Shown piece after piece: positions 6,277 to 62,625 of a stretch of 64,000 nucleotides of DNA. The notes below the pieces were generated by a model. The model saw nothing but the letters and a program-made list of their open reading frames with translations, had not been told where the DNA came from and searched no databases. The DNA is taken from assembly GCA_964016885.1 (NCBI GenBank), contig OZ024748.1, positions 5,208,001 to 5,272,000 on the forward strand. The letters run 5' to 3'. Source of the DNA: Eledone cirrhosa (lineage: Eukaryota). Every line of letters begins with the position of its first letter. Positions within the stretch are counted from its first letter, which is position 1. The translations under genes were made by a program, and so were the position numbers.

Positions 6277-6279
<3 letters not shown>

Positions 6280-6536
6280 TTCAAAATATTAACAAAATAG
6301 ATATTCTTATGATCAAGTATATTTTATTATACATATTTCAGAGGTACTGAGTTAACTTCAACAGTACGTCCTCATCAGATAAAATAAGATGATGCATGAC
6401 ATACCCTGACATAGTAGATGGTTAAGATTCAGTCATGGTATTGAATTAATAACTCCGGAAAACCAATACTGTTGAGTGCTTCCAATCTATTGTAAAACTC
6501 CTTCTTTGATTTATTCATTGAACCTTGTTTAACCTT

Positions 6537-6540
<4 letters not shown>
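6277..6540. mobile_element. Family A-related PLE derivative with one arm and a tail
   Basis: (TA)n-flanked; minus-strand HHR at 6320-6386; GACATACCCT shared with family A; plus-strand tail motif ACTC...TTGAGTGCT at 6452-6480. Confidence 0.7.
6320..6386 (-). ncRNA. Minimal type I hammerhead ribozyme
   Basis: Minus strand: TATTTTAT-CTGATGA-GGACGTACTG-TTGAAGTTAACT-CAGTACCTCT-GAAA-TATGTATA^ATAAAATA. Confidence 0.8.
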
Positions 6541-7865: not shown

Positions 7866-8107
7866 TATATATATAAATATACATACATATATATATATAT
7901 ATACACACACACACATATATATATATATAAATATACATACATATATATGTATATATATATATGAATATACATACATATATATATATATATATATATGATG
8001 GGATACAACAAGCAAATATTTTTATAACTGAAATAAAGCACTCAACAAATATGTGGAGTAAAAATACAATATGAACAAATGGAAACTATATTTATAAAAC
8101 CATATTT

Positions 8108-8170
8108 ATTTCATTATACATATTTCAAGGACACCAAGTTAAATTATGGTGTGCTTTCATCAGATAAAAT
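8108..8170 (-). ncRNA. Minimal type I hammerhead ribozyme (family A, left arm)
   Basis: Reverse-complement copy of 8318-8380 with intact CTGATGA and GAAA boxes. Confidence 0.78.
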
Positions 8171-8317
8171 ATAATATAGATCAGTTTTATAAATAAATAT
8201 TGACATACCCTTAAAGAATGCAACCATTACAGTTGGAAACTCCGGGAGCTTCCAACTGTAATGGTTGCATTTTTTAAGGGTATGTCAATATTTATTTATA
8301 AAACTGATCTATATTAT

Positions 8318-8380
8318 ATTTTATCTGATGAAAGCACACCATAATTTAACTTGGTGTTCTTGAAATATGTATAATGAAAT
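8318..8380 (+). ncRNA. Minimal type I hammerhead ribozyme (family A, right arm)
   Basis: ATTTTAT-CTGATGA-AAGCACACCATAATTTAACTTGGTGTTCTT-GAAA-TATGTATA^ATGAAAT. Confidence 0.8.
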
Positions 8381-8420
8381 AAATATGGTTTTATAAATAT
8401 AGTTTCCATTTGTTAATATC

Positions 8421-8503
<83 letters not shown>

Positions 8504-14575: not shown

Positions 14576-14610
<35 letters not shown>

Positions 14611-14619
14611 TGTGTATAA

Positions 14620-14815
14620 GTCCCCGGTTCAATCGGAGGTAACCACAGTAAGTAAGGTACTAAAAAGATTAGTAGAGTGTAAACATCATGTTTAATATAG
14701 AAATGGTTTCTACAGAACTACAACTGTTTTATTCAAAAGAAATCATTAGGACTTTCCTAATGATTTCTTTCGAATGAAACAGATCAAGTCCTGTAGAAGC
14801 CATTTCTATATTAAA

Positions 14816-14820
<5 letters not shown>
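14620..14820 (-). mobile_element. Fold-back element family D with HHR-like core; relatives at 12222-12297 and 50062-50180
   Basis: Arms 14688-14750 and 14756-14818; CTAATGA-TTTC-TTTC-GAAT-GAAAC-AGATCAA-GTC; tail is the reverse complement of 50128-50180. Confidence 0.72.
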
Positions 14821-14980: not shown

Positions 14981-15286
14981 TACAATATATTAATAAGTGG
15001 AAACTATATTTATAAAACCATATTTATTTTATTATACATATTTTAAGGGCCACCAAGGCAAATTATGGTGCGCTTTCATAAGATAAAATACAGATTTGAT
15101 GAAAGCGCACCATAGTTTGCTCTGGTGGCCCTTGAAATATGTATAATAAAATAAATATAGTTTTATAAATATAGTTTCCATTTATTAATATATTGTATAT
15201 TTACTCCACTAATATGTTGAGTGCTTTATATCAGTTATAAACATTTTTAAGCTTGTTGAATCCCAACAAATTAAATATAACCTCTG

Positions 15287-15290
<4 letters not shown>
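14981..15290 (+). mobile_element. Fold-back PLE derivative, family A, degenerate HHRs
   Basis: Inverted arms about 14981-15080 and 15097-15197, tail to 15290; right-arm core reads TTGATGA...GAAATATGTATAATAAAAT; (TA)n on both sides. Confidence 0.8.
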
Positions 15291-15382: not shown

Positions 15383-15847
15383 TGTGATAATAGCATAAAT
15401 AATATACAAGTTAACAAATGTAACTGTAGAGATAGATCTAAATGTCCGTTAAATAACAACTGCTTAGTTAAAAATATAGTATACAATTGTAATGTTAAAA
15501 CTGATTCTAATTCTTTTAACTACGTCGGTTCCACATCGACGGAATTTAAACTTCGCTATAATAACCACAAGAATTCTTTCACAGATCCAAGCAAAAAATC
15601 TTCAACGGCACTATCAGGCGTACTCTGGCAACTTAAGCTAGATAACGTTAGATATTCGACGGCTTGGAATATAGTCTCAAGAGGAATTCCTTTTAATTCA
15701 TCCTCTGAGACATGCGACCTCTGCGCAGAGGAGATATTCTTTATACTAAAATCTAAAAACTCCCTTAATCTACGGACAAATTTATTCAGTTGCTGCAAAC
15801 ATAGATTAAACTCAACTTATAAATATAAATTTAAATTTAAAATGTAG
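15383..15847 (+). pseudogene. 5'-truncated GIY-YIG endonuclease domain of a Penelope-like retroelement (Naiad-like); 154 codons, no internal stop, no start codon
   Basis: Manual translation: ...NKCNCRDRSKCPLNNNCLVKNIVYNCNVKTDSNSFNYVGSTSTEFKLRYNNHKNSF...STALSGVLWQLK...AWNIVSRGIPFNSSSETCDLCAEEIFFILKSKNSLNLRTNLFSCCKHR...KM*. NIVY/YVG correspond to GIY/YIG; catalytic-type R (FKLRY), E (AEE) and N (LN) present; upstream CxCx5Cx5C and H/CxxC/H zinc ligands. Starts directly after a (TA)n tract. Confidence 0.9.
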
Positions 15848-17211
15848 TATATTTAGTTTGATTTATAAGTATTTGGGAAACTAGCCGATAAATCTTTCGA
15901 TTTCTTCTTTTTATTCTTCTTTTTATTTTTATTTTTATTTTTATTTAAACATTCTTCATGGAAAATTAAACTACCCTAAAAGTTGATGCTCCAAATATTT
16001 CGAATAAACGTTACACTAGATAAACTTCTATATTAAATATAAGAATACATGTAGACCAAATGGGCATCCTAAACTTTTTGAAATGATTTTTGCTAGATGC
16101 GATTTGATAAATAATTTTTAGCTTTATCTGTTTTCGACTCTGATGCTTATAATGAACTTGGCAATATATTGTCAATTAATTTTGAAGGGTTGATCTTTGT
16201 GGTTTATTTTTAGTATTGTAGTATTTTCTAATATTTTTAATATGTAATATTTTTAATATGTAATATTTTTTCGTAATATTTTTTAGTTTTCTATTTTATT
16301 ATTATTTATTTATTATTATTATTATTATTTATTATTATTATTATTGTTGTTTTTTGGTTTTTGGTTTTTGTTTCTGATATATTTTTTATTAATATATTGA
16401 AATCTGCTCTCTATTTCTGCTTGATAGATAATCTTGTAGAGTAAAGACAAGAATAGTAGTAATATAGACTCTATATATATGTGTATATATATACACATAT
16501 GTGTATACTTAAATTTTTATAGCATCATGTAAATTCACATCGATGTTTGTAGTTATCATATAAACATATGAATTTTTTAAAACTAAACATAAGATCATTA
16601 CTTTTCACACATTATGGATACGTGTCTCATTCAGGAATACTGATATTTTCAATATAGTGCCTGGTTTTTATACATATTTTTTATACATATTAATACTTCT
16701 ACATTAAAACATAGGGTTTATATGCCTCGCCTATGTCTGATTACTTTTCATTTTTCTCGCTATATAACTGCTGGTTTCTCTCCTAACCACATATACCTCC
16801 CTTACATTAATACTAGAGCTAAATAAATAAATAAATAAATAAATAAATGTATCATTGATACGTTTACTCAACGGATGTCCAACTACATATTTTTCTATTC
16901 TATATATATATCTATCTCTATCTATTTCCTCTCTCTATATATATCTCTCTCTGTTTCTTTACATGAAGTTCTTCTCTTTATCTATCTTTCCATCTCTCTT
17001 TTTTGTTCCATGCATTTCTTCTTTTTCTTCTTTTTCTTCGTTTTCTGTCTTTCTTTCTTTTTTCTCTCTTTCTTTCTTTCTGTTTACAATTTTTTCACTG
17101 CCAATTCAATTTTTTCACTGCCAATTTTTTCACTGCCAATTCAACTTTTCAAATACAAGTCGATGTTGTACGGTATGTCAAATCTATTTATCTATAAAAC
17201 TGTTTATATTG

Positions 17212-17277
17212 TATTTTGTCTGAGGAAGGCATAGCATATTGTTAATATGATATTCCTGAAATATATATAACGAAATA
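17212..17277 (+). ncRNA. Minimal type I hammerhead ribozyme
   Basis: TATTTTGT-CTGAGGA-[stem II AGGCATAGCATATT-GTT-AATATGATATTCCT]-GAAA-TATATATA^ACGAAATA; stem I TATTTTGT/ACGAAATA, palindromic stem III, AUA triplet. Confidence 0.8.
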
Positions 17278-17389
17278 AATATGGTTTTATAAATATAGTT
17301 TCCATTTATTTAATATCGTATATATATATATATATATTTTTATATATATATATATTTATATATATATATATTTATATATATATATCGTT

Positions 17390-17590: not shown

Positions 17591-17785
17591 ATAGGAAAAA
17601 GTATGACCCCGACGGCAGAGCTCAAGCCGTTTCGACGGCTATTTTTGGTCCAGAAATAGCCGTCGAAACGGCTTGAGCTCTGCCGTTGGGGTCATACTTT
17701 TTCCTATTTCCCACTCTACTACCCTAAGTATTGAGTACTCTGGTGCGTTATGGTCCATCTGGTTCCTTACCACAATTCTTTTGTT
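17591..17785 (+). mobile_element. Fold-back element family B (about 58-bp arms plus tail) in (TA)n
   Basis: Palindrome 17591-17707 centred on TGGTCCAG; tail with ACTCTAC...TTGAGTACT; further copies at 28041, 30881, 42434 and 56465. Confidence 0.8.
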
Positions 17786-28040: not shown

Positions 28041-28148
28041 TAACGAAGGAAGTGTGGTAAGGAACCAGGTGGACCATAACGCACAAGAGTACTCGATACT
28101 TAGGGTTGTAGAGTGGGTAACAGGAAAAGAGTCAGGACCCCGGGGTCA

Positions 28149-30880: not shown

Positions 30881-30885
<5 letters not shown>

Positions 30886-31069
30886 CGGAGGAGGTGTGGT
30901 AAGGAACCAGATGGACCATAACGCACCAGAGTACTGAATACTTAGGGAAGTAGAGTGGGTAATAGGAAAATGTTTAACCCAGACGGCAGAGCTCAAGCCG
31001 TTTCGACGGCTATTTCAGTCCAGAAATAGCCGTTGAAACGGCTTGAGCTCTGCTGTCTGGGTTAAACAT

Positions 31070-31073
<4 letters not shown>
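30881..31073 (-). mobile_element. Fold-back element family B
   Basis: Tail followed by palindrome about 30967-31073; homologous to 17591-17785; (TA)n flanks. Confidence 0.8.
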
Positions 31074-32946: not shown

Positions 32947-32987
<41 letters not shown>

Positions 32988-33051
32988 ATAAATGTGAAGA
33001 CTAAAATCGAAAGAGAGCTCGATAAGGATAAATATATATTAAATATAGAGC

Positions 33052-33326
33052 AAATATTTATTAAAATAACAGATGAAAGTTTAAGCAAAGAATCGCTGCT
33101 TTCACCCTTAACGACGTATTATCTTCGCTTTTTTCCGTCCTTTGCCAGAGAACGTCTTCACCAACCAAAGTATCGTCTTCCTGTCTTCCTTCGGTTGCAA
33201 CGTTTCTCGAAATATTTACTTCTGCGTTCACAGATTCTTTTTTTGTTTTTTAGTTTCAGAAGATCCCGTTAAGGGTGAAAGCAGCGATTCTTTGCTTAAA
33301 CTTTAATCTGTTATTTTAATAAATAT
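33052..33326. mobile_element. Fold-back element family C (about 60-bp arms, about 155-bp loop); single-arm copies at 46095-46131 and 49928-49984
   Basis: ATATTTATTAAAATAACAGAT...CACCCTTAACG is inverted at 33267-33326; HHR-like CAGAAGA-TCCC-GTTAA-GGGT-GAAA...TTC at the right arm. Confidence 0.7.
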
Positions 33327-33343
33327 AAATATATATATATATA

Positions 33344-33388
<45 letters not shown>

Positions 33389-33671
33389 GCATATATATAT
33401 ATCACATGCACAGCCAAGATGAAGAAAACTGAGGCATTTTATAATTCTAACATTTTTTTTACAAGAATGACCAGAAACAAATATATTAGTGAAATAAAGA
33501 TGGTAAGAAACTTTGCTCAAACTCCATAATTCGTATACACAAGTAGCTATATATTTTAATCCGAACATTAATTCGATAAATTAGACAGTAAACATTAAGA
33601 TGCGCACTTCATGTCTTCAGAGAATTGGCGTATTATATCACAACATATATATATATATGATATATGGAATA

Positions 33672-34110
33672 TAATTGTTTCTACTTTTGGCACAAGGCCA
33701 GCAATCACCCAGTGCATTACTGGTACTTTATTTTATCGACCCCGTAAGGATGAAAGGCAAAGTTAACCTCGGCGGGATTTGAACTCAGAATGGCAAGGGC
33801 CGTAACTCTATGCATCAAAGCATGGCGTCCGACCCTCTACCGATACTGCCAGGAATATAATGTACCTCTATTAATAACCACTAAAGAGAGTAACGTTAAG
33901 TTTTAAGGGACAACAATATCATTATATTCCTGGCAGTATCGGTAGAGGGTCGGACGCCATGCTTTGACGCATAGAGTTACGGCCCTTGCCATTCTGAGTT
34001 CAAATCCCGCCGAGGTTAACTTTGCCTTTCATCCTTACGGGGTCGATAAAATAAAGTACCAGTAATGTACTGGTTAATTGCTGGCCTTGTGCCTAACGTA
34101 GAAACAATTA
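33672..34110. mobile_element. Head-to-head pair of S1 SINEs (33672-33851 minus, 33931-34110 plus)
   Basis: Near-identical inverted copies about 80 bp apart; left copy has TSD GGAATATAAT. Confidence 0.88.
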
Positions 34111-34264
34111 TATTTACCAAAATAGTAGCGGTCCACTCTGTGATAAAATAGAATTAATTTAATCAGGCTACTACCCTGTCAGAATGAACCTGGCATCACA
34201 GTTTCTGAAAAGTAATCCTTAATAACTCATCTTTGCTTGCGCCTAATAACCCCCCACCCCTCAT

Positions 34265-34870: not shown

Positions 34871-37800
34871 CAGTGGTTCCCAACCTTTCGTGCACCATGC
34901 CCACCTCAACATTTCAAAAATTGTTGACCCCACCCCACCCAATTTATATGAAAATAGCAATGATCAACTGCAAAGTGTAAACAATTTTTTGTGTATGGAT
35001 CTACAATAACATATGTGGTGGAGGAGGTGAGACAGGAGTTTCTGATAGTAATGTGTACCATATAGGTTGTGCCAGATGTACAATAACATGTGGTGGAGGA
35101 GGTGAGACAGGAGTTTCTGATAGTAATGTGTACCATATAGGTTGTGCCAGATGTACAATAACATGTGGTGGAGGAGGTGAGACAGGAGTTTCTGATAGTA
35201 ATGTGTACCATATAGGTTGTGCCAGATGTACAATAACATGTGGTGGAGGAGGTGAGACAGGAGTTTCTGATAGTAATGTGTACCATGTAGGTGGTGCCAG
35301 ATGTACAATAACATGTGGTGGAGGAGGTGAGACAGGAGTTTCTGATAGTAATATCTACCATATAGGTTGTGCCAGATGTACAATAACATGTGGAGGAGGA
35401 GGTGAGACAGGAGTTTCTGATAGTAATGTGTACCATATAGGTGGTGCCAGATGTACAATAACATGTGGTGGAGGAGGTGAGACAGGAGTTTCTGATAGTA
35501 ATGTGTACCATATAGGTGGTGCCAGATGTACAATAACATGTGGTGGAGGAGGTGAGACAGGAGTTTCTGATAGTAATGTGTACCATATAGGTGGTGCCAG
35601 ATGTACAATAACATGTGTGGTGGAGGAGGTGAGACAGGAGTTTCTGATAGTAATGTGTACCATATAGGTTGTGCCAGATCTACAATAACATGTGGAGGAG
35701 GAGGTGAGACAGGAGTTTCAAGCAGTAATATCTACCATATAGGTTGTGCCAGATGTACAATAACATGTGGTGGAGGAGGTGAGACAGGAGTTTCAAGCAG
35801 TAATATCTACCATATAGGTGGTGCCAGATGTACAATAACATGTGGTGGAGGAGGTGAGACAGGAGTTTCTGATAGTAATGTGTACCATATAGGTTGTGCC
35901 AGATGTACAATAACATGTGGAGGAGGAGGTGAGACAGGAGTTTCTGATAGTAATGTGTACCATATAGGTGGTGCCAGATGTACAATAACATGTGGTGGAG
36001 GAGGTGAGACAGGAGTTTCTGATAGTAATGTGTACCATATAGGTGGTGCCAGATGTACAATAACATGTGGTGGAGGAGGTGAGACAGGAGTTTCTGATAG
36101 TAATGTGTACCATATAGGTGGTGCCAGATGTACAATAACATGTGGTGGAGGAGGTGAGACAGGAGTTTCTGATAGTAATATCTACCATATAGGTTGTGCC
36201 AGATGTACAATAACATGTGGTGGAGGAGGTGAGACAGGAGTTTCTGATAGTAATGTGTACCATATAGGTTGTGCCAGATGTACAATAACATGTGGTGGAG
36301 GAGGTGAGACAGGAGTTTCTGATAGTAATGTGTACCATATAGGTTGTGCCAGATGTACAATAACATGTGGTGGAGGAGGTGAGACAGGAGTTTCTGATAG
36401 TAATGTGTACCATATAGGTTGTGCCAGATGTACAATAACATATGTGGTGGAGGAGGTGAGACAGGAGTTTCTGATAGTAATGTGTACCATATAGGTGGTG
36501 CCAGATGTACAATAACATATGTGGTGGAGGAGGTGAGACAGGAGTTTCTGATAGTAATGTGTACCATATAGGTGGTGCCAGATGTACAATAACATGTGGT
36601 GGAGGAGGTGAGACAGGAGTTTCTGATAGTAATGTGTACCATATAGGTTGTGCCAGATCTACAATAACATGTGGAGGAGGAGGTGAGACAGGAGTTTCAA
36701 GCAGTAATATCTACCATATAGGTTGTGCCAGATGTACAATAACATGTGGTGGAGGAGGTGAGACAGGAGTTTCAAGCAGTAATATCTACCATATAGGTTG
36801 TGCCAGATGTACAATAACATGTGGTGGAGGAGGTGAGACAGGAGTTTCAAGCAGTAATATCTACCATATAGGTTGTGCCAGATGTACAATAACATGTGGT
36901 GGAGGAGGTGAGACAGGAGTTTCTGATAGTAATGTGTACCATATAGGTGGTGCCAGATGTAGAATAACATGTGGAGGAGGTGAGACAGGAGTTTCTGATA
37001 GTAATGTGTACCATATAGGTTGTGCCAGATGTACAATAACATGTGGTGGAGGAGGTGAGACAGGAGTTTCAAGCAGTAATATCTACCATATAGGTTGTGC
37101 CAGATGTACAATAACATGTGGTGGAGGAGGTGAGACAGGAGTTTCTGATAGTAATGTGTACCATATAGGTTGTGCCAGATGTACAATAACATGTGGTGGA
37201 GGAGGTGAGACTGGAGTTTCAAGCAGTAATATCTACCATATAGGTTGTGCCAGATGTACAATAACATGTGGTGGAGGAGGTGAGACAGGAGTTTCAAGCA
37301 GTAATATCTACCATATAGGTTGTGCCAGATGTACAATAACATGTGGTGGAGGAGGTGAGACAGGAGTTTCAAGCAGTAATATCTACCATATAGGTTGTGC
37401 CAGATGTACAATAACATGTGGTGGAGGAGGTGAGACAGGAGTTTCAAGCAGTAATATCTACCATATAGGTTGTGCCAGATGTACAATAACATGTGGTGGA
37501 GGAGGTGAGACAGGAGTTTCTGATAGTAATGTGTACCATATAGGTTGTGCCAGATGTACAATAACATGTGGTGGAGGAGGTGAGACAGGAGTTTCTGATA
37601 GTAATGTGTACCATATAGGTTGTGCCAGATGTACAATAACATATGTGGTGGAGGAGGTGAGACAGGAGTTTCTGATAGTAATGTGTACCATATAGGTGGT
37701 GCCAGATGTACAATAACATGTGGTGGAGGAGGTGAGACAGGAGTTTCTGACAGTAAAGTCTATCAAAGTGCCTTGGTGAAAAAGTAATAAAGTAAAACCT

Positions 37801-42433: not shown

Positions 42434-42627
42434 TAACGAAGGAAATGTGGTAAGGAACCAGGTGGACCATAACGCACCAAAGTACTCAATACTTAGGGTA
42501 GTAGAGTGGGTAATAGGAACGAGTAGGACCTCGACGGCTGAGCTCAAGCCGTTTCGACGGCTAATTCTGGACGTCCAGAATTAGCCGTCGAAACGGCTTG
42601 AGCTCAGCCGTCGGAGTCTTACTGGTT

Positions 42628-42631
<4 letters not shown>
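42434..42631 (-). mobile_element. Fold-back element family B
   Basis: Tail followed by palindrome centred on CTGGACGTCCAG; (TA)n flanks. Confidence 0.8.
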
Positions 42632-42658
<27 letters not shown>

Positions 42659-42663
<5 letters not shown>

Positions 42664-43050
42664 ATATTAATAATTGGAAACTATATTTATAAAACCATAA
42701 TTATTTTATTATATATATTTCAAGGGCAACCAAAGCAGTTTTGGTGCACTTTCATCAGATAAAATACAAAATTTGTTTTTTCCACTATCCAGCGAACCTT
42801 CAACCGTCAAGGTTGTTTTTCTAAGGGTATGTCAAGATTTATAAAACAAATTTTGTATTTTATCTGATGAAAGCGCACCAAAACTGTCTTCGTTGCCCTT
42901 GAAATATATATAATAAAATAATTATGGTTTTATAAATATAGTTTCCATTTATTAATATATTGAATATTTACTCCAGTAAATTGTTGAGTGCTTTATATCA
43001 GTTATAAAACTTTTAAGCTTGTTGAATCCCAACAAATTAAATATAACTTC

Positions 43051-43053
<3 letters not shown>
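42659..43053 (+). mobile_element. Fold-back PLE derivative, family A
   Basis: Arms about 42659-42779 and 42844-42962 with a roughly 65-bp loop; tail nearly identical to 15197-15290; (TA)n on both sides. Confidence 0.85.
42857..42919 (+). ncRNA. Minimal type I hammerhead ribozyme (family A); antisense twin at 42703-42765
   Basis: ATTTTAT-CTGATGA-AAGCGCACC...GTTGCCCTT-GAAA-TATATATA^ATAAAAT. Confidence 0.78.
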
Positions 43054-43093
<40 letters not shown>

Positions 43094-43385
43094 GTTAATA
43101 TAAATTAATGTATTTGATAAACACAAATCCCAACATATTCATGTTTGTATTGTAAATGACCAAGTTAGCTAGATTGAAATATACTAATAATATATATATC
43201 GTTTCTGAATTTCTTTAGCAAGAAACATGTGTTGAAACCGATATTGTTATGCTTTGGGAGGGTCATGGTGCCAATAAGAAACACACGCACCAGTTGCATT
43301 CACTCCAATTTATTATAAATGAAATTTATAAATTTAAGAATTCATAAATTTCCGGTTGGTTGGTTGGTTCCACAACCGGACGGTT

Positions 43386-43448
<63 letters not shown>

Positions 43449-43631: not shown

Positions 43632-43780
43632 GTGAATGAAGTAATTCCGTCGGAAAGGTACAGGAAAAAAGAGTGCTCTATGCAGATTACAGAGCTTATT
43701 AGTTATGTAAAAAACAACATAAGATAATTATTTCATTTACCACTGGTAAATGAAATAATTATCTTATGTTGTTTACTACC

Positions 43781-43787
<7 letters not shown>
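43632..43787 (-). mobile_element. Short fold-back element (31-bp perfect arms plus tail)
   Basis: AAACAACATAAGATAATTATTTCATTTACCA-C-TGGTAAATGAAATAATTATCTTATGTTGTTT; tail motif GCTC...GAGCACT on the minus strand; microsatellite flanks. Confidence 0.65.
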
Positions 43788-44312: not shown

Positions 44313-44584
44313 ACACACACACATATATGTGTGTCTGTGTGTACATATATATTAGTTTCAAAACAAGTCTGTACACATCCTAAGCCATGGTACGATGTGT
44401 TTGTCAAAGTAAAAATTAAACCTTTCAATGTAAAGACGATGTCAATTTAAACACAATCTGCTGTGAAATATATATTTAACACTAGAAGACATTTCATATC
44501 ATTGCTCTGACATCTTGACTTCTGTTATTGGAGATAAGAAAAACAAAACAAGACAACACAAGGCCAAGATTATTATGGAATATT

Positions 44585-44966
44585 GGCGGTGGTTTGGTAG
44601 TATCGGTACAGCGCCAGACATCATGCTTTGCAGCATAGAGTTATGGCCCTTTGCGTTCTGAGTTCAAATCCGCCGAGGTTAACTTTGCCTTTCATCCTTA
44701 CGAGGTTGATAAAATAAGGTACCAGTAATACACTGGGGTAATCGCTGGCCTTGTGCCAAATGTAGAAACTCTCGGCGGTGGATTGGCAGTATCAGTAGAG
44801 ATTCGGGCGCCATGCTTTGCAGCAAAGAGTTACGGCCCTTTATGATCTGAGTTCAAATCCCTCCGAGGTTAACTTTGCCTGTCATCCTTACGAGGTCGAT
44901 AGAATAAAGTACCAATGATGTACTGGGTAATTGCTGGCCTTGTGCCAATAGTAGAAACAATTATTA
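44585..44966 (+). mobile_element. Tandem S1 SINE dimer
   Basis: Two full copies, 44585-44769 and 44774-44966. Confidence 0.82.
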
Positions 44967-45177
44967 TCGAATATTGAGAAGGTGGTGAGAAAATAAGTAA
45001 GAGCAAATTTCTAGATTGTGCAACAACGACAACGACGATGATAAAAAGGACGAAAGCAATACTACAAAGACGACAACAGTTACAACATCAATATCAATAA
45101 CAAGGAAAACAACGACGACCTCAGCGATAACAACATCAGCGACAACGACATCAGTGGATTTCGAAGTTAATCTAAAC

Positions 45178-50023: not shown

Positions 50024-50058
<35 letters not shown>

Positions 50059-50461
50059 TCTAATTTAATATAGAAAAGGCTTCAACAGGACTAGAACTGT
50101 TTCATGCGAAAGTAATCATCATGAAAGCACTCTACTAATGTATTGAGTACTTTACTTACTGTGGCTATCCCCGATTGAAATATATATATACGGGACTATC
50201 GAAGTGGTGGGTGATTTGAAACGTGGGAATCCCAAATGCAGAAGATATATGTAATCACATGCGTTTGCTCAAAATAAAACTTAGAACATCGGGTAAGAAA
50301 CACCTAGGGACGAGAAATGGGATAAGGAACCGCTATGGATAATCGAAAATTGTTCTATACGAAGTTCGATTCCCCTTAGCAGGGGCTAGAAGCTATTTTT
50401 CCCTCGATAAGGGTATTTTACCCGATTTTCTTAGCTATCTTTTACATGATATATATATATC

Positions 50462-56466: not shown

Positions 56467-56578
56467 ACAAAGGAATTGTGGTAAGGAACCAGATGGACCA
56501 TAACGCACCAGAGTACTCAATACAGAAATAGCCGTCGAAACGGCTTGACCTCTGCCGTCGGGGTCATACTTTTTCCTA
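56465..56578 (-). mobile_element. Family B element with one arm deleted
   Basis: Tail ...GAGTACTCAATA is joined directly to the distal arm CAGAAATAGCCGTCGAAAC... Confidence 0.75.
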
Positions 56579-56589
56579 TATATATATAT

Positions 56590-57160
56590 ATATTTCGTTT
56601 CTGAATTTGTTTAGCAAGATTCTTTACCTGAAAACGTGTGATGAAACCAATATTGTTATGCTTTAGGAGGGTCATGTTGCCAATAAGAAACACACGCACC
56701 AGTTGCTTTCACTTCAATTTATAAATTTCCGGTTGGTTGGTTGGTTCCACAACCAGACGATTGTTCACATATTGTCAAAATTCTTTTGTCACAGATTCTG
56801 TGACCTCTTCAGTGACTGGGGATTCTTTTCTTTGTTTTTGTGCCTCTCATTTGTTCTGTCCTACGCCATCTTGTTTTTGTGTGTCATCTTGTTTTTGTGT
56901 GACACACAAAAACAAGATGGCGTAGGACAGAACAAAGGAGAGGCACAAAAACAAAGAAAAGAATCCGCAGTCACTGAAGAGGTCACAGAATGTGTGACGA
57001 AAGAACTTTGACAATATATGAACAATCGTCTGGTTGTGGAACCAACCAACCAACCGGAAATTTATAAATCTTTAAATTTATAAATTTCATTTATAATAAA
57101 TTGAAGTGAAAGCAACTGGTGCGTGTGTTTCTTATTGGCAACATGACCCTCCCAAAGCAT

Positions 57161-57168
<8 letters not shown>
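56590..57168 (-). mobile_element. Fold-back element family F (about 250-bp arms); partial copy at 43200-43463
   Basis: Arms about 56650-56886 and 56900-57168; HHR in the arms; (TA)n flanks. Confidence 0.82.
56970..57012 (+). ncRNA. Minimal type I hammerhead ribozyme (family F)
   Basis: GTCA-CTGAAGA-G-GTCACA-GAATG-TGTGAC-GAAA-GAACTT^TGAC; the antisense twin (about 56774-56816) has GAAA changed to AAAA. Confidence 0.68.
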
Positions 57169-57203
<35 letters not shown>

Positions 57204-57711
57204 GAAAGTGAACATCACAAAATATAACTACTTCATTACCAAATGTTTCTGGATTCCAGACCATAATAATATATGTCTGGATCTGTCGTCAGACAGAGAT
57301 GTTATTAAAAATACAAAAATATACACACATAGACACGTACACGTAGTTATATATATATATAACTACGTGTACGTGTCTATGTGTGTATATGTGTATATGT
57401 ATGTATTTTTATGTTTGTCTGCTTTGCGTATATTTGCGTGTGTGTATGTGTGTGTATATATGTGTGAGTGTGTGTGCGCGCTCGTAAAAGACAATTTAAC
57501 GAATCCGACTGAGAAGGGAGACATGCCAAGCCAATATGTTGTAATACAATCTCTGGAGGACAATGATAGATCTTCGTGAGAATTTCATGCGAAACATTGA
57601 TTGTTAGTGATACGCTATTTGCATGAATGCTCGTACGTTGGTGTTCAGGGTTCTCGGCTGAAAATCCTAAGGCTATGAGTTAGATTCCTTGTGGTGCGTT
57701 GTTTCATTTAA

Positions 57712-58190
57712 TGGTTTCTAATATAGGCATAAGGCCAGCAATTTTGGGGGAGGGTAAAGTCGATTAAATCGACCCCAGTGCGTGACTGGTACTTTATTTT
57801 ATCGACCCCGTAAGGATGAAAGGTAAAGTTAACCTTGGCGGCATTTGAACTCAGATCATAAAGGGCCGTAACGCCATGCTACAAAGCATGGCGTCCGACA
57901 CTTTACCGATACTGCCAATCCACCGCCCTCGCATTGTTTCATGTAATAAGGCATTATATTTCACGGTGTTAGGGCGGTGGATTGGCAATATCGGTAGAGG
58001 GTCGGACGCCATGCTTTGCAGCATATAGTTACGGCCATTTATGATCTGAGTTCAAAATCCTGCCGAAGATAACTTTGCATTTCATCCTTACGAGTAGATA
58101 AAATAAAGTACCAGTCACACACTGGGGTCGATTTAATCGACTTTCTCCTCCCCCAAAATTGCTGGCCTTCTGCCTATATAAGAAACCATT
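57712..58190. mobile_element. Head-to-head pair of full-length S1 SINEs nested in an S2 SINE
   Basis: 57712-57928 minus and 57972-58190 plus; direct repeats TTGTTTCAT.TAAT and CATTATATTTCACG flank the individual copies; S2 head at 57640-57710 and S2 body at 58190-58330. Confidence 0.82.
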
Positions 58191-58974
58191 ATATTTCACG
58201 TCGTTCAATTCACTCAGCTGGGAATAAATGAGTCGTACCTGCAATTTAAATGGTCATCCGTTGAAAACACTGTTTTACGCTGAATCTCCCTGAGAATTAA
58301 GTTATGTGTGTAGATGTCTGTGTAATACCCACATACACGTTTATATTGTGCGCATATTGTAATATTGTTTGAACAACTGGAACACTAACCAAAACGCATA
58401 CACTCCAGTTACTTAAAGCTATCCGCAAAAACATATTCCCATTTTACTTCTATAATTATTATCATTTGAGTAAGTTTAGTGTTTGAATCCCGTCGAGTTT
58501 AGTTTTACTTTTAATTCTTACGGAGTCCATAAAATAAAGTACCAGTAATCTACTGGGGTCGATTTGATCGATTTTTCCCTTTCCCCTCTAAATTGATTGC
58601 TTTGTGGCAAATGTAGAAACAATTCTTTTACTAAGGGTAAGGAATGTGGATAGGCAGAGTGGCTAGATCGTCGAACAACATGCTTTGTGGCATAGAGTTA
58701 CGTCCCTCTGAGTTCAAATCCCGTCGTGGTTAACATTGCATTTCATCATTTTTTGTGTATAGTTTTATGATATTATCAGATCTAATGTGTGTTCTAATGT
58801 TTTTGTGTGAAACTTCACAATGTGGTTTGATATGATAGAAATATAAGAGACATCTGCAAGGATTGTTTTGCAAAGTAATTATAGAAGCAACGAACAAATG
58901 AGATATAGAAAACAGAGAAGACAGATATACAGATACATAGATGAATAAAGAAATATATATTTAGATAGATGTAG

Positions 58975-59492: not shown

Positions 59493-59552
<60 letters not shown>

Positions 59553-59707
59553 ATAGAACCAGTTTAAAAGTAGTAAGACCATCATTACTCATCAGAGTAC
59601 TTGATACCCAGGGTAGTAGTGTGTGTGTATATATATATATATAAACGAACATCGCTGGTATGAATACAGCGTCCTTCGGCCAGCGTATATATATATATAT
59701 ATATACA

Positions 59708-60194
59708 TAAAAACGAAAAATCAGTGATGCATCTGGACTCAGTTTATTGCGTGTTACAATTGTTTCGCCGGCAGGTAGCTCGAGACATGATCACTGTATG
59801 GATCTGGCTGATTCTACGGCTGCAGGTTCCTTCGGACACGGGCAGTTCGTTCGGAGCAAATTTTCTTTCAAAAAACATCTTTCACTCTTGTCATGCCATT
59901 GGCTGTTGTTATTCTACGTCATGTTTTTTGAAGGTGTTTTTTGACGATAACACCCCAGTGAGAAAATTTGCTCCGAACGAACTACCCGTGTCCGAAGGAA
60001 CCTGCAGCCGTATAATCCATACAGTGATCATGTATCGAGCTACCTGCCTGCGAAACAATTGAAAACACGTAATAAACAGAGTCCAGATGCATCACTGATT
60101 TTTCGTTTTTTTATACTCTCCACACTACTCTGTATGAATATTGAGTGCTAATTTTGGCATGCCGCCTATGGAAAAACCATAGCACTATACACAA

Positions 60195-60196
<2 letters not shown>
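59708..60196 (+). mobile_element. Fold-back element family G (about 145-bp arms, about 100-bp loop, tail)
   Basis: Arms about 59708-59858 and 59961-60112; tail with ACTC...TTGAGTGCT; (TA)n flanks; variant HHR core CCGAAGG...GAAACAATTGTA. Confidence 0.8.
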
Positions 60197-62276: not shown

Positions 62277-62625
62277 ATTTATATACGTGAACCTAAACAT
62301 CGAGTGCTCACCCGGGTGAACGTACAGTAACTCCGCGTTACACTCCCTGGATATATATGTATGTATGTATATATATATATCCGTCGTCTTCCCCACCAGT
62401 CTGGTATATACATTTTCTGAAGTACACTCACCATTCACATACACAGACACATATATTATACAATTATACAGAGTCTTCTACAGACATTCCCGAAACAATT
62501 ACACACACAACCTCTAGAAATCTACTGAAACAGTCAACCAGCGAGAAAGTCATTTATTTTATGTGGAAGGCTGACACTTACGAACATTTACACACACACA
62601 CACCTATACATATATATGTACATAC

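Follow-up and report, generated by a model that had tools for sequence, protein, structure and literature searches.

A bulged hairpin repeated beside the ends of Hydra-clade Penelope-like retrotransposons in the genome of Eledone cirrhosa

The short motif ACTC-N12-18-GAGTRCT recurs within a window of 64,000 nucleotides (nt) of DNA from Eledone cirrhosa (assembly GCA_964016885.1, contig OZ024748.1, positions 5,208,001 to 5,272,000), an animal with a (TA)n-rich genome of 3.0 Gb. This hairpin motif is real and present above chance. Our analysis of the sequences shows that it is the first (H1) of two hairpins, H1 and H2, in the leader of Penelope-like elements (PLEs) whose protein motifs match the Hydra clade, and that two-armed copies of these retrotransposons terminate a few nt short of H1 on one side and of H2 on the other; each hairpin probably binds one reverse transcriptase (RT) and fixes an internal start of copying. 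As a cis-element the motif is new; the retrotransposon clade that carries it, the tail and two-site initiation have already been published. A sequence-only reading of the window had proposed a conserved cis-signal tied to the boundary of the pseudo-long terminal repeat (pLTR); this proposal is supported, and none of the tests of frequency, position and covariation refuted it. The interpretation as a whole is partly supported, and the hairpin pairing, the location of H2 beyond the end of the tail and the membership of the carriers in a single clade were not part of it.

A genome-wide search for the strict pattern returned 41,895 + 42,095 = 83,990 matches, compared with 325 + 142 = 467 for the reversed control, a 180-fold excess; among the 100 matches listed, most are contributed by one repeat family, family B. 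The variant with GAGC in place of GAGT gave 9,544 + 9,563 = 19,107 matches versus 144 + 131 = 275 for its reversed form, and the first position of this variant is mostly G among the 100 matches listed. A relaxed descriptor matched 11 times in the window (0-3 times in each of 20 shuffles) and 86 times in 900 kb of unselected DNA, consisting of 90 stretches of 10 kb from the same genome (20-30 times in each of 5 shuffles), which puts the background of the relaxed motif at about one quarter of its matches. A TA run lies 30-79 nt downstream of 65 of these 86 motifs.

The hairpin, which is 21-30 nt long, is built on a 4-bp lower stem (RCUC/GAGY). Above it come a 2-nt bulge on the 3' side (UU, UA or UC) and 2-5 further base pairs, which form the upper stem and carry a variable loop; RCU follows at the 3' end. 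Both stems covary around the 2-nt bulge. In 29 clusters that were collected without requiring pairing, the first pair is A-T in 14, G-C in 10, G-T in 4 and A-C in 1; with a 2-nt bulge, 21/29 and 20/29 are paired, whereas assuming bulges of 0, 1 and 3 nt lowers the count at the first upper pair to 7, 6 and 4 of 29, respectively. Upper pairs 2-4 of the same clusters number 45 versus 33 in shuffled sets, and 28 of 10,000 shuffles reach 45. Among 25 hand-picked hairpins the first upper pair is C-G in 12, T-A in 12 and T-G in 1, and the sense strand is favoured because G-U outnumbers A-C by 9 to 2. The central CUC/GAG is invariant, a feature partly built into the search. Scripts counted the pairs with the motif as anchor, since a MAFFT alignment of the 25 hairpins misplaced the 5' arm of the short ones. 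Two known structures were considered and dropped: a Helitron-type terminal hairpin, as no terminal CTRR follows, and a selenocysteine insertion sequence (SECIS), as the AUGA/AA/GA pattern is missing.

Full-length copies of the carrier elements, found by starting from a fragment of an open reading frame (ORF) at 15384-15847 of the window, encode a 737-residue RT with a C-terminal GIY-YIG endonuclease (P0001). The order of their leader is usually a hammerhead core, about 105 nt, H1, 78-146 nt, H2 and, 13-62 nt later, the ATG; this anatomy was seen in 8/8 fetched full-length family-A loci, where ends fall at two points only. H2 is mostly of the GCTC form. Genome-wide, double-hairpin patterns gave 958 + 953 matches versus 80 + 24 reversed, and a second pattern with GCTC at H2 gave 322 + 306 versus 7 + 53; the latter form was used when a short-gap search was swamped by a 58-bp tandem satellite and had to be redone. 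That satellite is itself derived from the family-B H1 region (G000:C1:14,233,475-14,242,750; loci L152-L180). In 8 reference groups the hammerhead core pattern precedes H1 by 100-113 nt, and no canonical core was found within 200 nt of H1 in families B, G, R and L254; a comparison of two leaders (L113 and L298) with Rfam gave no hammerhead match and nothing at gathering score. In family B, the most abundant family (leader of L151/L249; window 17594-17784), the arm holds a GAAAC-containing palindrome and no canonical hammerhead. Units of family B also form head-to-tail arrays with a period of about 3.53-3.54 kb (G000:C1:91.47-91.49 Mb and 437.20-437.21 Mb), and such arrays are a likely source of read-through RNA carrying both hairpins.

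The positions at which copies end are tied to the two hairpins. In family A, the aligned ends of 8 loci fall into two sets, one stopping 5-7 nt ahead of H1 and the other 3-9 nt ahead of H2. For the unselected DNA, 307 first hits were reduced to 138 copies mapped to family leaders, after removal of window hits, low-complexity hits and hits with an identity <75%, a length <40 or a leader overlap <30 nt. The (TA)n at which the Hydra clade inserts stands at the 3' end of 99 of these 138 copies, of which 36 end before H1, 54 before H2 and 9 elsewhere. The 90 that end within -2..16 nt of H1 or H2 do so in two 19-nt acceptance windows that make up about a fifth of the leader, and 72/90 fit a distance of 5 nt, as 72/90 also fit 6 nt. 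Overall, a UA-rich patch marks the termini, which precede either hairpin by 3-9 nt (mode 5-6), and the pattern is the same family by family in 9 groups; the modal intervals at site 1 (before H1) and site 2 (before H2) are 7-5 and 9-7/9-3/8-4 in family A, 8-5 and 6-3 in B, 7-4 and 8-6 in I, and 6-2 and 6-3 in J. As the sequence-only reading had noticed, the motif lies just 3' of the point where the inverted arm stops: in the window the gaps are 7-4, 7-2, 8-5, 8-5, 7, 6-4, 9 and 13-11 nt (the ranges reflect TA microhomology, and two further rows with mis-set starts were left out), and in the unselected DNA a detectable inverted arm ending in TA accompanies 36/86 relaxed motifs, 26/36 of them at a distance that fits 5 nt. 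Since copies end 5' of H1 or of H2, the tail is the spacer between the hairpins, containing H1 and stopping short of H2, and its length tracks the H1-H2 spacing. H2 is not copied into the 3' ends.

A further regularity concerns the two ends of a single insertion. Where both ends of a two-armed insertion could be classified and no long TA run lay inside, 70/71 insertions had one site-1 end and one site-2 end (30/30 in the unselected DNA, 8/9 in ORF-selected, 25/25 in motif-selected and 7/7 in window copies), and in L117, the lone exception, one and the same flank adjoins both ends. Independent choice of the ends would give such a pair with an expected frequency of 0.48 per insertion, or 2.7e-10 for 30/30. 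This one-of-each rule suggests that the two ends arise together, in a single coordinated event. At positions -10..-3 of the hairpins, TAT or ATA is found in 19/26 cases versus 36/104 upstream windows, which is moderate evidence for the UA-rich patch since the families are related. At site 2 of L111-L116, the leader has GT seven bases before H2; in four copies the corresponding position of the tail is AT instead, and in one the G is kept. Either a primer annealed across a G-T wobble or a start of copying displaced 5' by 1-3 nt would be compatible with this.

Within the window, each motif site lies in a short insertion flanked by (TA)n. Most of these insertions combine two arms, one long and one short and inverted, with a tail present in single copy. 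The seven ACTC-N12-18-GAGTRCT sites first reported are all where they had been placed, and the compensatory G-C variant GCTC-N13-GAGCACT is present as well, one base from its earlier position. The site at 6452-6480, formerly assigned to family B, belongs to a family of its own (C). Of the weaker relics, that at 59597-59625(-) is a decayed family-B copy, and near 62300 the segment 62302-62308 is the 3' half of an H1 from another family (L280/L297). The sites and the parts of their insertions are as follows.

15203..15225, + strand: hairpin H1, family A, in the tail of two-armed insertion 14983-15289; the arm stops 7-2 nt before H1
15096..15137, + strand: minimal hammerhead core with its first C changed to T, 107 nt before H1 on the same strand, from a pattern scan
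14983..15090, - strand: inverted arm, short and tailless, which ends at site 1
15196..15289, + strand: single-copy tail from site 1 to site 2, site 2 being a few nt before the H2 position in full-length leaders
15384..17318, + strand: 5'-truncated family-A element ending at site 1, including the 3' untranslated region and a hammerhead core at 17220-17261
15384-15847, + strand: C-terminal GIY-YIG part of the family-A ORF, 99% identical to P0001 residues 585-737
8037..8059, - strand: H1, family A, in two-armed insertion 7997-8421; hammerhead cores start at 8163(-) and 8325(+)
42970..42992, + strand: H1, family A, in two-armed insertion 42660-43053
6452..6480, + strand: H1, family C, in insertion 6277-6539; the inverted arm has a hammerhead core starting at 6378(-)
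17713..17739, + strand: H1, family B, in two-armed insertion 17594-17784
42481..42507, - strand: H1, family B, in insertion 42436-42629; newly recognized
28088..28114, - strand: H1, family B, tail only, from 28043; newly recognized
30930..30956, - strand: H1, family B, one lower-stem base mutated, in insertion 30883-31073; newly recognized
43672..43695, - strand: H1, family H, with G-C first pair and TA bulge, in insertion 43634-43784
50129..50151, + strand: H1-type hairpin, family D, in tail 50051-50179 without inverted arm; no ORF link found
60127..60149, + strand: H1, family G, in two-armed insertion 59706-60195; the arm stops 13-11 nt before H1 (outlier)
33014..33051, - strand: variant hairpin GCTC..GAGCTCT in the tail of two-armed insertion 32985-33328; newly recognized
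59550..59627, - strand: decayed family-B tail relic
56467..56576, - strand: family-B insertion retaining only the 3' strand of H1
62302..62349, + strand: 3' half of H1 and tail, family R, ending 7-3 nt before the H2 position of full leaders
14608..14819, - strand: family-D two-armed insertion, hairpin decayed

The assignment of the carriers to the Hydra clade is based on a match to the protein motifs in section 11 of PMC8557442, which, like the other publications discussed here, is cited for the portions drawn upon. Each carrier has a single ORF with the RT followed by a C-terminal GIY-YIG endonuclease (EN) (P0001, 737 residues; P0031, 719 residues), the motifs YKDD/YRDD being followed by YVGST/YIGLT. 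The N-terminal motif is RWR in P0001 and P0031 and RWK in family J (Hydra-1_Crog also has RWR instead of RWK; PMC8557442), and both proteins have SDKT, with DKG changed to DKT. Their linker reads CNCRDRSKC or CNCPDRSIC at CxCX5C, and around the EN end they have CDLC or CNLC at CxxC and CKH at CxH; by inspection, the EN has no CCHH and has one Cys between its GIY and YIG halves, compared with two in a Neptune-like control. ORFs behind H2 are homologous in families A, B, I, J, J2, C, G, R and L254, with 31-70% identity to P0001/P0031, and the tail of family H comes after a Hydra-type EN remnant (L139). The description of the motif as shared by otherwise unrelated families therefore applies to the non-coding ends only, as the encoded proteins are homologous and of one clade. 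Named protein relatives were from Argonauta hians only; the EN fragment had no match in Pfam and a sequence search of the PDB found no relative, and the predicted fold of P0001 is best matched by TERT (3du5, E 1.1e-9, TM 0.31). Family K, with an H1 of 65 nt and an H1-H2 spacing of 146 nt, has ends at both sites (L252, L197, L200, L203, L208 and L253), and an EN remnant lies 1.6 kb upstream of one family-K hairpin (L238).

Two other clades were rejected for the carriers: Naiad, as the EN is C-terminal and not N-terminal, and Neptune, as P0001 and P0031 have the CxCX5C linker rather than CX2-5CxxC and lack CCHH. The window does contain a Neptune-like PLE family (432-965, 43091-43388 and 56594-57164) with CX4CxxC and a CCHH endonuclease, which is two-armed, tailed, (TA)n-flanked like the Hydra families and hammerhead-bearing. 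Neptune tails had been named as a place to look for the motif, and neither the motif nor its 3' half is present in 30/30 tails of this control family. The absence of the motif from a family so similarly built makes it a feature of the clade, and not of the host or of the target site. The Neptune-like tails have a GTTTC..CACA..TTT stretch in common.

We propose that a transcript reading through a tandem pLTR would carry both hairpins and so load two proteins. At a (TA)n target the endonuclease would cleave the two strands, and each 3'-OH would pair with the UA patch that directly precedes one of the two hairpins. Both RTs would copy upstream, with the two cDNAs joined head to head; the outcome would be an inverted repeat with a one-sided tail containing H1 and not H2. 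Two internal starts and cutting of both strands have a precedent in the PLE Poseidon (PMC11167929). Among the functions suggested earlier for the motif, RT recognition fits best; a self-priming hairpin does not fit, since copies stop on the 5' side of the hairpin, where they meet the (TA)n of the target.

Several observations weigh against this proposal. Poseidon starts at a site without homology to the cut DNA, unlike the step of annealing to a UA patch (PMC11167929). No Hydra ORF has been tied to the hairpins of families D and K, and family K has both hairpins yet none behind H2 at 6/6 loci. As for the termini, 39/138 copies have no TA at the alignment end, 9/99 end elsewhere than at H1 or H2, and there is no single distance, the commonest family-A interval at site 2 being 9-7 and that of the family-G copy in the window 13-11. 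The 25 hairpins were picked by us, the search patterns fixed Y and T at two positions, some representatives of the 29 clusters start at the wrong RCTC, the clusters share ancestry, and bulges of 0, 1 or 3 nt occur among them. Folding alone is weak (z -2.1 to +0.3 in 6 window copies), and several H2 retain just the 4-bp lower stem in their minimum-free-energy structure; given such energies, the fold probably needs protein. In the consensus sequences of PMC8557442, inspected by eye, Hydra-1_Crog (copepod) and Hydra-1_Obim have diverged forms only, and none is clear in Hydra-1_Amil.

Other explanations can be considered for the same ends. The hairpins might direct a host nuclease or an element protein to cut the RNA about 6 nt upstream, with ordinary target-primed reverse transcription then starting from the new RNA 3' ends. 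A processing signal would suit a fixed distance 5' of the hairpin equally well, and the favoured sense strand agrees with it, but two independently cut RNAs would pair a site-1 with a site-2 end about half the time, against the 30/30 observed, and Poseidon starts internally, with an extended RNA 3' end leaving the main product in place (PMC11167929). We regard this explanation as unlikely, although a hybrid, with an RNA cut at site 2 and an internal start at site 1, may apply. Slightly less likely still, the hairpins might form in single-stranded sense DNA, or be read in duplex, and direct the GIY-YIG endonuclease, which would resolve a longer intermediate at the two sites. PMC8557442 ascribes the tail to EN-mediated resolution, the EN of D. 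virilis Penelope needed the tail for recognition (as cited in PMC11167929) and G-T pairs form in DNA as well; however, a plain duplex site is excluded by the covarying stems and by a loop that varies in length, up to the H1 of family K, H2 lies beyond the inserted end, and the ends join (TA)n with microhomology, as would be expected of priming. We give little credence to a role of the hairpins in expression (promoter, translation start or RNA stability) or in self-priming on an antisense template, with the termini nearby for other reasons: H2 does lie close before the ATG and antisense self-priming has been proposed for head-to-head repeats (PMC3846280), but two equivalent hairpins about 6 nt behind the termini at spacings of 61-146 nt and the one-of-each rule would be left unexplained, and the excess of G-U over A-C is on the sense strand. 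Neither coincidental matches nor neutral descent within a single repeat family is tenable, for despite the share of family B among the genome-wide matches listed and the relaxed-motif background, both are refuted by the genome-wide counts, the termini, the compensatory changes, the pairing rule, the unalignable flanks between families and the presence of the hairpin in coral and sea-cucumber elements.

The preferred reading, that of two RT-binding leader hairpins, can be compared with sequences from other animals. In the supplement of PMC8557442 the hairpin is clear by eye in 3/6 Hydra consensus sequences: both hairpins stand at the start of Hydra-1_Ajap (sea cucumber), before the ATG, and H1 is in the tails of Hydra-2_Ajap (sea cucumber) and Hydra-2_Amil (coral). 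Four 7-mers occur 54 times in that supplement, of which 4 are Hydra hairpins; by eye the remaining occurrences have no terminal bulged hairpin, subject to line breaks that may hide matches. The Naiad_Ptep consensus has GCTC..GAGCACT with a weak upper stem at its 5' end, a weak candidate that is possibly due to chance (PMC8557442). A marine metagenome contig (L298) contains H1, H2 and the ATG of an element whose protein is 36-37% identical and whose H1-H2 spacing is 61 nt, and the tailed marine copy L299/L300 (one insertion) ends 2-8 nt before H2.

The present elements share several traits with the Hydra clade of Craig et al. 2021 (PMC8557442): the protein motifs, a GIY-YIG domain at the C terminus, insertion into (TA)n, and an inverted arm with a tail on one side only. 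The core pattern of the pLTR hammerhead is present in 8 reference groups, and the hairpin is within the consensus sequences of that clade; the elements differ in that units there are <3 kb with tails of 30-40 nt, compared with 3.5-3.8 kb and about 60-146 nt here. The PLE protein of Poseidon_Ac cuts and extends both target strands (Frangieh et al. 2024, PMC11167929), two internal RNA start sites bound its tail, the RNA 3' of them is needed and a dimer is predicted. The likeness lies in these two start sites at the tail bounds and in the two processed strands, whereas Poseidon_Ac is of another clade, starts inside an AC-rich stem loop, and is described, in the parts of PMC11167929 cited, without a hairpin recurring behind the two sites, an ACUC/GAGURCU motif, a one-of-each rule or primer-template homology. 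In the printed Poseidon_Ac template a 3'-bulged hairpin can be folded by eye from about +121, a few nt behind the +111-118 start (PMC11167929). The EN+ Penelope of Adineta vaga shares the head-to-head repeat with a tail on one pLTR; there, antisense self-priming was proposed, and the portions of PMC3846280 cited have 0 mentions of hairpin or stem and name no cis hairpin. Hairpin or stem-loop likewise has 0 mentions in the main text and supplement of PMC8557442, and bioRxiv 10.64898/2026.07.22.740005 does not mention the motif, as far as the portions cited extend. In keeping with the earlier remark that the motif was not known to be described, a literature search that left Repbase, most subscription papers and figures outside found no description of the motif, of a twin hairpin, of a fixed offset or of a one-of-each rule.

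The two equal hairpins 3' of two fixed internal sites also distinguish these elements from long interspersed nuclear elements (LINEs), including L1. LINEs and short interspersed nuclear elements (SINEs) have 3' stem-loops, of which that of the LINE is copied, with copying beginning at the RNA 3' end, and L1 twin priming proceeds from both target strands with a second site that is not fixed. In telomerase RNA, the elements bounding the template are small RNA structures that bind the RT and set the start of copying; the likeness of our hairpins to them would be one of role only, and no sequence likeness is claimed. Tentatively, and with less conviction than for the binding of single RTs, the leader might be viewed as a two-berth RNA scaffold docking two RT-endonuclease subunits, so that one RNA would write both ends at fixed offsets, and a structure 3' of either start site might be the general cause of the Penelope tail, shared with telomerase ribonucleoproteins.

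Some other features of the window deserve mention. At 34900-37800 a 75-bp unit is repeated in tandem about 36 times, and the array contains long open frames. An abundant interspersed repeat, which we take to be SINE-like, forms head-to-head inverted pairs without the hairpin motif at 33668-34114, 57706-58194 and 44570-44977. When the window was compared with Rfam, 0 of the 150 hits listed (of 329) were at gathering score, and those listed were microsatellite-driven.

PMC8557442 names as a question how PLEs choose where copying starts and how they produce head-to-head insertions tailed on one side only, and PMC11167929 showed two internal starts and not what sets them. Penelope-like elements are the closest relatives of telomerase RT. 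With a paired, covarying hairpin that is conserved across several phyla and from which both ends of almost all two-armed insertions can be predicted, the question of the start site becomes experimentally direct. The hairpin also serves as a clade marker, with which no fewer than 84,000 short repeat ends that lack an ORF can be annotated in this genome.
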